A stretch of 64,000 nt of DNA. It comes from a virus (Duplodnaviria > Caudoviricetes). The notes under the pieces were generated by a model that made no database searches, was not told the DNA's origin, and saw only the letters and a program-made list of their open reading frames with translations. The translations under genes and the position numbers were made by a program. The stretch lies in IMG/VR virus record IMGVR_UViG_3300032224_000903, positions 1 to 64,000 of that record; one strand, given 5' to 3'. Below, piece after piece: positions 18,981 to 58,897 of the stretch (the first letter of the stretch is position 1; every line of letters begins with the position of its first letter).

Positions 18981-19006
18981 TATTTATAAATATTTCAATA
19001 AATATT

Positions 19007-19037
19007 TTGGATATTCCAAAATACATACATATCTTTG
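19007..19037 (+). promoter_or_regulatory. Host-type promoter with upstream inverted repeat TTGGATATTCCAA
   Basis: TATCTTTG at 19030; same layout at 29454-29483. Confidence 0.7.
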
Positions 19038-29412: not shown

Positions 29413-29502
29413 TATAATTAAAATAGAATTATACAAATATTTTTATAATTTTTTTGGATATTCCAATAATATCTATATCTTTGTAGTCTAAATTAAAAAA
29501 CT

Positions 29503-53034: not shown

Positions 53035-53432
53035 TGGTGGAGACGAAGGGAGTCGAACCCTTGTCCGATCCGCAGCACCATAGATGGACTACACGTTTAT
53101 TCTATTATTCACAACAGACAAATAGTAAGTTAATATCGGGAAACTTACAAGACCGTTCCTGACCGGATTTTCAAGAGCCGCCAAGTTTGCTCCAACACTC
53201 TAGGGTTATGTTCCACCGAAAGGACTTCTGTTCCTAGGTTATACGTCCATCAACCCGATTTGTAAGTGTGCTATTAGGCTACAGCTACAGTAGAAGTTGC
53301 GATTAAACCACAAGCTTCCATAACGTTATAAACGTTGTCTTTTGTTTTTTACCACCGTGTATTAAAGTCATAGATGATGTCTGACTACGTGCCCATTTAC
53401 CATACCAACGTCCGTCAAATCCAGGCGTCCCC
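53035..53432 (-). ncRNA. ssrA: tmRNA (one-piece)
   Basis: 5' GGGGACG pairs with 3' CGTCTCC-ACCA with G3:U wobble; T-arm GGTTCGACTCC; tag ORF 53339-53274 DNVYNVMEACGLIATSTVAVA**; TATATTTG promoter at 53442-53449. Confidence 0.92.
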
Positions 53433-55157: not shown

Positions 55158-55193
55158 ACCACAAATATAGGTATTTTTTTGGAATATACCAAA

Positions 55194-55799
55194 TTATACT
55201 TCAAAAACTAAATTAACTCGTAATTTATCTGAATCGTTGATAAAAGAATGTATCGTGTTTCCAAATGTATATATGGAATTAGAATCTAAATTACAAATAC
55301 GACAAGATTCGTCATATTGTAAAAAGTAATTATTAAACTCATCTATATTATCTTTTAATTCAATATGTTTTTGATTAATAATATCTTCAGTATTGTCAAA
55401 CATTATAAAATCAGAATATGCCTCATAACTAAAAAATCTGTCATGATTATTAAATGAAACTAAATGTCTATTTTTACCATGATCTCTATGAAAGTGAACA
55501 TACGTTTTCGGTGGATACGTCATCAACCACATCATTTTAATATTATAAATTGATTTTAGATATTCAATAGATTCTTTTATCGAATTGGTAATTAATTGGT
55601 TATTTAAAGATCCAATTGGAGTCCTTTCAATGTCTATAACAACTTCTTTATCTTTTGGAGATATTCCATCGTAGTAAACAAAATCATTATTAATTCCTTT
55701 AGGTAATTCGTGAGAATAAAAATTAAAAGATTCAAAAAAGTCTTTTAATAAATTAAAACTTGGGTGATTGATTGTTAGTTCTTTTTTAATAATATCCAT
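55194..55799 (-). CDS. 2OG-Fe(II)/cupin oxygenase, Asp/Asn beta-hydroxylase-like
   Basis: HFHRD...HSFIN.S...RVNLVF. Confidence 0.6.
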   Translation of the reverse strand: MDIIKKELTINHPSFNLLKDFFESFNFYSHELPKGINNDFVYYDGISPKDKEVVIDIERTPIGSLNNQLITNSIKESIEYLKSIYNIKMMWLMTYPPKTYVHFHRDHGKNRHLVSFNNHDRFFSYEAYSDFIMFDNTEDIINQKHIELKDNIDEFNNYFLQYDESCRICNLDSNSIYTFGNTIHSFINDSDKLRVNLVFEV

Positions 55800-55815
55800 A
55801 TTAATAAATAGTCAT

Positions 55816-56768
55816 AAAAAAAGTCAGAATTTCTTCTGACTAATCTTGTATAGGCCGTATGGTTTTACATACATTCACCACCACTTTGTTTTTCTAAACA
55901 AAGAAAATAAAACTCTGAGAATACAAGTTTTAACAATCGACTTAGGAACATTATTTGTTTCTTTCCCTTTCCACGAACTTTTGATTCGTACCGATCAATG
56001 ACGGTCAATTAGATTAACCAATCCTAAAGTCATCAGATACTCTTTTATTACTTATTACTCAACAAATCTGCCGACCTGTTTCAACCTTGCGGGTTTAGAG
56101 AACTTTCTTAAAAATCATATTGGGATTGAGTCCCTTTATGGCCGTGAACCTCTCACGACTAAGTAGTCACCTGTCTCCAATGACTGACGAACACTTTTTC
56201 TTTTTATGTATGATTTTTATACCAAAATAAAAATTTAGTTTTCCGAATTGGGAAAGTAGTGGTTCGTCACCTAGCCAAGTCATCTTTTGAACGACTCGAT
56301 ACTAAACTACTCTCTGAAGTGTCCCCACCTCCATATTTTTGGTTTCCTTCGAGATTAAACCCTTGGTAGGATTTAGTCAAGGACACTAACAGCACCACCT
56401 GTTTTTTGTCATACCTTCCATCTTACGACGCTACGGTTTTAAGACCACCATTGTATTGAATCACGCAATTGTATAATCGGATAACTATACTTCTCACAAA
56501 CTAATTCTATGGATTATTCTTATTGGTGTTCCCACCTCAACCAAACAACTCGGATTGCTTGGTCATCTAACCATTTCGCTACGGAGTTACCCTCACTACT
56601 TCAGGTCAAACGATATTCCACTTGTCTACTCGAGATCCATTACTGAATCCGCAATTTGTCCCAACCAAGGACTCCTCACTTTATCCCACTTTCATGGTTT
56701 ATTTTATTGACTATAGACGGCCAATATTTTTATTCAAAGAACATTATCTTTTGGATTATTCACCCTTC
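55816..56768 (-). ncRNA. Candidate large structured RNA (~950 nt), GOLLD-like
   Basis: No credible ORF; TATCTTTG at 56774-56781; terminator 55816-55841; GGCCGU/ACGGCC end-closing helix; many hairpins; near tRNA and tmRNA genes. Confidence 0.65.
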
Positions 56769-56805
56769 TTTTACAAAGATAAGAAATGTTTTCTAATATT
56801 CCAAA

Positions 56806-57021
56806 TTATTTTGAAACTTTTTTAGATTTTTTTTCTTTTTTAATTTCATATGATCCACCTTGATCGTGACCAACTTCAACATTCTCTTTTGGTGATTCAG
56901 TTATAATACCTTTCCATTCTGTTTTAGTTGTGTATTTCCATGTTGTACCGGCCATTTGGTAAGCTTGTTTTTCATCAACTCTAATAATATTTCCTGTTTT
57001 AGTATTTTTTAAACACTTCAT
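56806..57021 (-). CDS. Small basic hypothetical protein
   Basis: 71 aa ORF. Confidence 0.7.
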   Translation of the reverse strand: MKCLKNTKTGNIIRVDEKQAYQMAGTTWKYTTKTEWKGIITESPKENVEVGHDQGGSYEIKKEKKSKKVSK

Positions 57022-57187
57022 ATTTTCTATTTTTAATAATATAAGAAATTTTATTTAAAAAACAAAATAATCAATAGGGACAGTTCCTTCACTTCTGTCT
57101 TGTCTCTCCGTAGCAGTCAGCACTATTGATATTTGATGGATGAAAAACATCTATTCTTCTTGCGGACTTCCATCGGAGTCCCATATC

Positions 57188-57418
57188 TTATAAAAATCTA
57201 CTACCTTGTCTTCTTCTTGCCTCTTCGGCTTCCCTATACCAACGAATCCAAGTTAATGAAACATCAACGGGGGCAAGTATCCAAGCCATTACTAAAACCA
57301 TGATGGTATCTAATTCTGGCGAACCACCTGTGGGGTCGTTAGAATATCTTTTGTCTAAATTTTTAAACAACTGATACAAACAATAAATAACGCAAATAAC
57401 ATAATAACCTATAAACAT
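57188..57418 (-). CDS. Small membrane protein
   Basis: Two hydrophobic segments. Confidence 0.7.
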   Translation of the reverse strand: MFIGYYVICVIYCLYQLFKNLDKRYSNDPTGGSPELDTIMVLVMAWILAPVDVSLTWIRWYREAEEARRRQGSRFL

Positions 57419-57949: not shown

Positions 57950-58038
57950 TGGCGGAGAGAGTAGGATTCGAACCCACGGACCTGTTACAGTCTACAGTTT
58001 TCAAGACTGTCGCGATAGACCAACTCTGCCATCTCTCC
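57950..58038 (-). tRNA. tRNA-Ser(TGA), CCA encoded
   Basis: Cloverleaf with long variable arm; anticodon loop CTTGAAA; GGTTCGAATCC. Confidence 0.95.
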
Positions 58039-58238
58039 GTTGACACCTTTATTTATCCAACTCATAGGTGTCTTAGCTGTCCCCTTTCGGGTTAGGAATA
58101 GACCATTGGGTTACTATATTTACCCCTTATAGTAGACGGTCAATCTAAATAGAACCTTGTCCTATCATCAGTTCCATATGGTCGTCAAACCACTTCTCTT
58201 CATATTGGACATACTATTCGGTGACTAACCGAACCGTG

Positions 58239-58313
58239 TGGGAAAGTTTGGATTTGAACCAAAGACCTTTGCTTTATGAGAGCACTGCTACTAACCAACT
58301 GAGCTACATTCCC
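58239..58313 (-). tRNA. tRNA-CAT (Met or Ile2) with stem mismatches
   Basis: Anticodon loop CTCATAA; T-arm TTTGG-TTCAAAT-CCAAA; T6:T67 and G27:A43 mismatches. Confidence 0.8.
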
Positions 58314-58322
58314 TATTTGTCG

Positions 58323-58407
58323 CTGACACGGTAGGAGTCGAACCTACGGTGGATTTTACTCACCAGATTAACAGTCTGGACCATTCGGCCTCTATGGCAA
58401 CGTGTCA
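58323..58407 (-). tRNA. tRNA-Asn(GTT) with long variable arm
   Basis: Acceptor TGACACG/CGTGTCA-G; CCAGA-CTGTTAA-TCTGG; ~15-nt variable region. Confidence 0.85.
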
Positions 58408-58687
58408 TTCTATCTTCCAAAAAATTTGATTCTAATCCAACTTAAATTGCACCATCCGATTCATTGATCTGGTTGACAAAGTCCTCGATTGGATTAGTCT
58501 CAAAAAGTTACAGGTTTTTCGTACCATCTATGTACATCATAACAGATATAATCTGCGGTTACATTTTCGTATTGGGCTAATTACTCCCGACTTATAGTAA
58601 CTCTACCCTCACCGTTCTACATCTAGATTCAAACGGATCTTTTGGGATTCATAGACAGTGGGGTCACACCACCGTCGTCACCTGTTG

Positions 58688-58760
58688 AGCCTCGTTACGG
58701 ACTTGAACCGCAGACCTAATCATTACAAATGACTTGCTCTACCAACTGAGCTAACGAGGC
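58688..58760 (-). tRNA. tRNA-Thr(TGT)
   Basis: Canonical cloverleaf; anticodon loop TTTGTAA; TATCTTTG promoter 58799-58806. Confidence 0.95.
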
Positions 58761-58897
58761 TTATTTTATTTCAATATGTCAAAGAACCACTTATTTTACA
58801 AAGATAATAAATATATATGAATATACAAAATTATTTTTAATCTTTTACAAAAAACCCCCACCTTTAGGGTGAGGGTTATCAATATATCAATATATTA

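Follow-up and report, generated by a model that had tools for sequence, protein, structure and literature searches.

GOLLD was described in 2009 and is present in Rfam, and cage structures of this RNA have been solved. Traits that characterize the family include a structured 5′ domain of about 400 nt with weaker conservation than the 3′ domain, self-assembly into a symmetric cage of RNA alone, and expression as a stable RNA whose level rises during lytic growth. The env-38 GOLLD, an 833-nt RNA, was resolved by cryo-EM as a 14-mer cage (PDB 9MEE; Kretsch et al. 2025, PMC12286853), with conserved adenosines in L14 and with the self-pairing loops L21a and L21b joining the half-shells; for bridge B8, a switch of L21a between GC and CG has been published in the same work. 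The GOLLD of Streptococcus agalactiae has 700 nt, forms a 12-mer (PDB 9L0R) and is without P9, P11a-c and P21b (summarized in PMC12990946). ROOL and OLE are, like GOLLD, large and ornate RNAs that form protein-free assemblies, ROOL being also phage-borne and located near tRNA islands, while their sequences and folds are unrelated to the RNA analyzed here.

We analyzed a 64,000-nt stretch of viral DNA (hereafter the window), in which an initial annotation had pointed to an ORF-free structured RNA, taken to be either a member of GOLLD or a large ornate RNA of a new kind. Scanning the whole window with Rfam 15 gave a sole strong match other than tRNAs, to GOLLD (RF02032, gathering threshold 150 bits), at 56314-55912 (-), with 297.6 bits, an E value of 3.8e-84 and the complete model (1-416 of 416) aligned without truncation. 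The alignment extends over the long hairpin that carries the CAAAAG loop, the A/U-rich linker, the 10-bp pseudoknot and all downstream hairpins, and holds two non-standard pairs in all, both outside the pseudoknot. ROOL and OLE were matched neither at the gathering threshold in the whole window nor at E values up to 1 in 55300-57300, and a permissive Rfam scan of the latter interval yielded, beyond GOLLD, nothing but a chance-level match to rliD. The comparison with these three families, which the annotation had proposed as a check, thus places the RNA among known rather than novel ones, given the strength and full length of the RF02032 match: the sighting was real, and the family is already known. 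The conserved core spans 56724-55912 (-), 813 nt. In line with what had been noticed at first, the unit has a GC content of 36.9%, as against 30.6% for the window, which ranks it in the top 2% of equal-sized windows, and no credible ORF was found in it, the longest frame reaching 47 aa on the strand of the RNA and 67 aa on its complement. The features located in the window are collected in Table 1.

Table 1. Coordinates of the GOLLD unit, its predicted signals and neighboring RNA genes in the window
Feature	Position	Strand	Remarks
Putative -33 element TTTG	56802..56805	(-)	adjoins the stop codon of the 71-aa ORF upstream
Putative -7 box TATCTTTG	56774..56781	(-)	sigma-A consensus TAnnTTTG, positions -12 to -5
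Predicted leader	56725..56769	(-)	about 45 nt; flank alignment and A2
GOLLD 5′ domain (cap domain in env-38)	56315..56724	(-)	410 nt, outside the Rfam model; nhmmer and covariation
Expansion site	56410..56440	(-)	longer GUAA-capped hairpin in the window; A2 comparison
P13/P14 hairpin	56252..56314	(-)	A-rich loop CAAAAG at 56289-56284; Rfam model positions 1-62
Variable linker J13/15	56186..56251	(-)	A/U-rich; 66 nt, 24% GC
GOLLD 3′ domain (ring domain in env-38)	55912..56185	(-)	Rfam alignment
10-bp pseudoknot	56185-56176 with 56027-56018	(-)	every pair standard in the Rfam alignment
CGCAAG loop	56091-56086	(-)	62/64 aligned sequences
GGCA loop	56072-56069	(-)	62/64 aligned sequences
3′-tail hairpin 1, CUUUGUUU/AAACAAAG	55884..55903	(-)	followed by conserved UGGUGG; near-subclade-specific
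3′-tail hairpin 2	55853..55879	(-)	GUAUG/CAUAC core; overlaps ACGGCC of the proposed closing helix
Proposed closing-helix strands GGCCGU/ACGGCC	56722-56717 and 55861-55856	(-)	bases present
Predicted intrinsic terminator AGUCAGAA-GAAA-UUCUGACU, then U7	55815..55841	(-)	stem 55841-55822, 8 bp
TTTGGAWATTCCAAAA..TATCTTTG sites	19006-19037, 29453-29483	(+)	
TTTGGAWATTCCAAAA..TATCTTTG sites	55162-55193, 56774-56805, 58799-58829	(-)	
tmRNA	53035-53432	(-)	same strand as GOLLD
Four tRNAs	57950-58760	(-)	same strand as GOLLD

To compare this locus with its relatives, a motif scan of IMG/VR was used, which returned at least 120 viral contigs; 122 loci were fetched and searched by nhmmer, with window positions 56730-56315 as the query for the 5′ domain, and the window was aligned with 63 non-redundant relatives (alignment A2, 64 sequences). 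Among the matches listed, the GOLLD region is 93-97% identical to IMG/VR viral contigs of 67-335 kb, and the total length of GOLLD ranges across loci from 804 to 858 nt. When the region was compared with phage records by blastn, its 5′ part alone was matched, the records being LR745206 and LR756502, uncultured huge phages that measure 634 and 642 kb. In both, a full GOLLD match follows shortly downstream. Among 185,579 representative bacterial genomes, scanning for the pattern produced 20 matches, all of them due to chance: nhmmer confirmed none, and none of the 19 such loci scanned with Rfam was GOLLD. The presence of this env-38-type GOLLD in at least 120 viral contigs, together with the lack of a true match in representative bacterial genomes, is consistent with a lytic-phage lifestyle.

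Immediately upstream of the leader lies a candidate promoter with the pattern TTTG-N20-TAnnTTTG (TTTG-N20-TATCTTTG, 56805-56774, (-)); in Flavobacterium, the consensus for sigma-A is TAnnTTTG, located at -12 to -5 (PMC9723704). A host-type promoter had been annotated at 56774, which is indeed the last base of TATCTTTG. A TAnnTTTG box occurs within 150 nt upstream in 53 of the 64 aligned sequences, compared with 19 of 64 control windows; it is conserved in the upstream alignment of near as well as distant relatives, where a TTTG or TTGACA element is found about 20 nt above it. It is this conservation, and not the counts, that supports the pattern, TTTG-N-TAnnTTTG being not enriched over the window as a whole (9 found vs 5.8 expected). 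A generic sigma-70 scan gave no enrichment, and its match TTGAAT/TATAGT at 56737-56710 was rejected because it lies inside the conserved RNA. From the position of the promoter, transcription is predicted to start at about 56769; the leader that would follow varies in length and sequence among relatives, with GUUCUUUGA..AAAAUAUU kept in the near subclade. An extended motif of the Bacteroidota -33/-7 type, TTTGGAWATTCCAAAA..TATCTTTG, is present at five sites of the window, three of which head the tRNA cluster (58829-58799), GOLLD, and a metallophosphoesterase gene (55193-55162), and the five look like one promoter class of the phage. Judging from this promoter motif, of the sigma-A type and with its box kept upstream of GOLLD in most relatives, the host of the phage is probably a member of the Bacteroidota.

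At the opposite end, the tail that follows the Rfam match in the near subclade comprises a covarying hairpin (55903-55884), UGGUGG, a second hairpin, GGCC and a near-invariant terminator, in this order. The terminator, annotated from the start at 55816-55841, was upheld: its 8-bp stem and U7 are conserved in the nearest relatives, and a dedicated subclade-tail scan found it kept almost letter for letter in 25 IMG/VR loci. In relatives, the stem of tail hairpin 1 changes on both sides, for instance to UUUAGUUU/AAACUAAA or UUCAAUU/AAUUGAA, while tail hairpin 2 is supported by the fold of the tail (z = -2.9) and has equivalent local hairpins in other tail variants. In some other clades, a tRNA-Met begins 3-17 nt past the core in place of this module. 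The promoter and terminator motifs together suggest a primary RNA of about 955 nt, 56769-55815 (-), and the boundaries first given for the unit, 55816-56768, were accurate, with the predicted start 1 nt away. The three hairpins named at that stage are also real, gagtc/gact being the stem of P14, acgaa/ttcgt a 3′-domain stem of the Rfam model, and ctttgttt/aaacaaag a hairpin of the 3′ tail that covaries in relatives.

A helix closing the RNA, GGCCGU/ACGGCC, had been proposed as well. The bases are there, but little speaks for their pairing: relative to shuffled tails, the duplex between the 5′ end and the tail has a z score of -1.5 in the window and a median of +0.45 in the 64 sequences, 6 of which fall below -2, and ACGGCC belongs to a local hairpin with which the helix would compete. 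The helix occurs in the nearest subclade only, and even the 3′ GGCC is found in 7 and absent in 3 of the 10 tail variants among the 25 loci of the subclade-tail scan. Some relatives carry GGCCGC/GCGGCC, yet these seemingly compensatory bases belong to tail hairpin 2 as well, and the first two bases of the helix overlap with the first helix of the 5′ domain, which is well supported. In view of the median duplex score and of the overlap with the local hairpin, we rejected the closing helix as an established feature and consider it improbable that it is real. We are similarly doubtful of a broader version, in which the subclade-specific 3′ module replaces tRNA-Met and its GGCC(G) may pair with the GGCC(G) of the 5′ end; if true, the closing pairing would tie both ends of the RNA, adding an element that is absent from the solved structure.

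Rather than being made from its own promoter, GOLLD might mainly be cut from a longer transcript that starts upstream, either at the promoter of the tRNA cluster (58829-58799) or at the small ORFs. No terminator intervenes between these upstream ORFs and GOLLD, the genes from 59680 to 53035 are all on the same strand, and in some relatives tRNA-Met lies 3-17 nt downstream of GOLLD or, mostly at 87-204 nt, upstream of it, suggesting co-transcription and processing in those phages. Moreover, the promoter directly adjoins the upstream ORF, and transcripts that read through from there are possible. Against this stand the sigma-A-type promoter placed 45 nt before the core, whose TAnnTTTG box recurs upstream in the relatives, and the separate promoters of the same type that head the tRNA cluster and the next gene. 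We thus regard processing from a longer transcript as an unlikely main source of the RNA and favor transcription from its own promoter, although the two are not mutually exclusive.

As Rfam models the 3′ half of GOLLD only, the 5′ 410 nt of the RNA are without a catalogue match, and one could suppose that this large ornate RNA forms a new class, whose likeness to GOLLD is confined to size and setting. This reading is ruled out, for practical purposes, both by the full-length, high-scoring GOLLD match of the 3′ half and by the 5′ half itself, which is common to more than 100 other GOLLD loci and to the solved env-38 RNA. By nhmmer, the 5′ domain was found in 115 of the 122 loci among the matches listed, always directly upstream of the 3′ domain. 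Running RNAalifold on 63 unique sequences (the misaligned row L080 being left out) predicted 21 helices with 144 pairs over 56745-56250, that is, the 5′ domain plus the P13/P14 hairpin, and 19 covarying helices lie within the 5′ domain at 56315-56724. Standard pairs occupy 95.9% of the cells at these 144 pairs, compared with 38-42% when the 3′ partner was slid by 1-3 columns and with 81.8% after shuffling letters within columns, and compensatory changes were observed at 85 of the 144 pairs, compared with 2-9 in the slid controls. The relatives thus keep the GOLLD helices through compensatory changes. The short ORFs on the opposite strand, which reach 67 aa, might hint at a protein-coding region that has decayed or escaped recognition, but this reading can be dismissed, since the substitutions among relatives are compensatory in helices and not codon-patterned and the full covariance-model match also speaks against coding. 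With the full RF02032 match joined to a standard 5′ domain of the env-38 type, the annotation's first option, a GOLLD member, stands, and its second, a new large ornate RNA, falls.

The GOLLD RNA of the window shares with env-38 its full-length architecture. The env-38 construct starts with AUGGCCGCUAUGGUC, the counterpart of which in the window is AUUGGCCGUCUAUAGUC at 56726, followed by collinear conserved blocks; in both RNAs, a 5′ domain that begins with the (A)UGGCCGY-CUAURGUC motif is followed by the P13/P14 hairpin with its CAAAAG loop, an A/U-rich linker and a pseudoknotted 3′ domain bearing CGCAAG and GGCA loops, and both RNAs are phage-associated and near tRNA genes. The features by which a GOLLD RNA is recognized are found here as a structured 5′ domain of 410 nt within a core of 813 nt (for a family length of about 800 nt), the A-rich loop of P13/P14 followed by the linker and a pseudoknotted multi-hairpin 3′ domain, and a place in a phage beside tRNA genes, with four tRNAs and a tmRNA within 3 kb. 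The P13/P14 hairpin shows compensatory changes at 13 pairs, and its CAAAAG loop is present in 63 of the 64 aligned sequences, the remaining one having CAAAAA. Both exceptions to the CGCAAG loop are the huge phages, which have UCGAA, a switch from GC to CG, and the closing pair of the GGCA loop covaries; at all three loops, which are motifs of cage contact, the window carries the majority form. No tRNA or tRNA-like element was found in the linker or the flanks beyond the four tRNAs.

The two RNAs differ in that the core has 813 nt in the window and 833 nt in env-38, that the solved env-38 construct is without the leader (45 nt) and the 3′ tail (97 nt, made up of two hairpins and the terminator) of the window, and that env-38 lies downstream of a tRNA-Met, whereas none abuts GOLLD in the window. 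The longer, GUAA-capped hairpin of the window at 56440-56410 corresponds in most relatives to a short one, CC-GAAA-GG; the matching place in env-38 is likewise extended, but by a different extension. This appears to be P11a/L11a of the published numbering, and the site is known to vary in GOLLD (PMC12990946). The S. agalactiae RNA is of the same family and has the same conserved 3′ domain, while a GGCA hairpin at the position of P21b and the extended P11a-like hairpin place the window closer to env-38 than to the Streptococcus form. We therefore hold with high confidence that the window encodes a GOLLD RNA gene of full-length env-38 architecture, on a large freshwater phage with a probable Bacteroidota host.

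The surrounding DNA is that of a large freshwater phage, in which PHROG and Pfam matches are sparse (HNH endonucleases, a metallophosphoesterase, a glycosyltransferase, a PhyH dioxygenase). GOLLD lies, as had been noted, between the tmRNA and the tRNAs, set apart from them by three protein genes in one direction and by three small ORFs in the other, and all genes from 59680 to 53035 share its strand. A 201-aa ORF at 55194-55799 (-), without a Pfam or PHROG match, is present in the window and in locus L115 and absent from the otherwise collinear L086, L103, L039 and L029, in which the metallophosphoesterase gene comes directly after the terminator; this ORF is an insertion or deletion between close phages. 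In the tRNA cluster, tRNA-Asn(GUU) at 58322-58407 (-) has 86 nt and a long extra arm (ARAGORN; Rfam 43.3 bits), which is unusual for tRNA-Asn, and the spacers at 58408-58686 (279 nt) and 58039-58237 (199 nt), both (-), are unusually long; Rfam gave no match for either spacer, and their predicted folds do not surpass those of shuffled sequences (z about -1.2).

Across loci, tRNA-Met(CAU) is the tRNA that recurs next to env-38-type GOLLD, on either side: it lies 3-17 nt past the 3′ end or upstream, mostly by 87-204 nt, in IMG/VR loci that include L041, L054, L046, L105, L071, L070, L016, L081 and L020, and others. The tRNA-Met of the window is about 1.5 kb upstream of GOLLD. In the huge phages, GOLLD occupies 3433-3838 of L001 (LR745206) and 3414-3820 of L002 (LR756502), and the self-pairing loop is in both cases of the rarer CG type; a tRNA-Met is found about 90 nt upstream in L001, and a gene recognized by Rfam as tRNA-like about 10 nt past the core in L002.

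Taken together, these observations are compatible with the following model. The main sigma factor of the host would start transcription at about 56769 from TTTG-N20-TATCTTTG, and the terminator at 55841-55815 would end it, so that the primary RNA would measure about 955 nt. By homology to env-38, copies of this RNA would then assemble into a closed cage free of protein, the most likely number of chains being 14, both cage formation and this stoichiometry being transferred from that structure, and the Streptococcus form being a 12-mer. Its 5′ domains would form two caps and its 3′ domains rings, the linker would face inward, and the half-cages would be joined by the self-pairing loops, here CGCAAG and GGCA. 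Tentatively, the cage might hold or shield elements of the translation machinery, such as tRNAs or parts of the ribosome, during lytic growth, a guess that fits the fixed place of GOLLD in phage tRNA/tmRNA blocks; storage or shielding of translation components is a published speculation on GOLLD (PMC12286853, PMC12990946).

The locus carries little weight as a discovery, the family being known, but the by-products of its analysis may aid work on the function of GOLLD. The freshwater phage GOLLD set appears to carry its own promoter of Bacteroidota type and, in the near subclade, its own terminator as well, signals that cleanly delimit a predicted transcription unit of about 955 nt and point to the phylum of the host, and a 3′ module specific to this subclade sits where some other phages have tRNA-Met.
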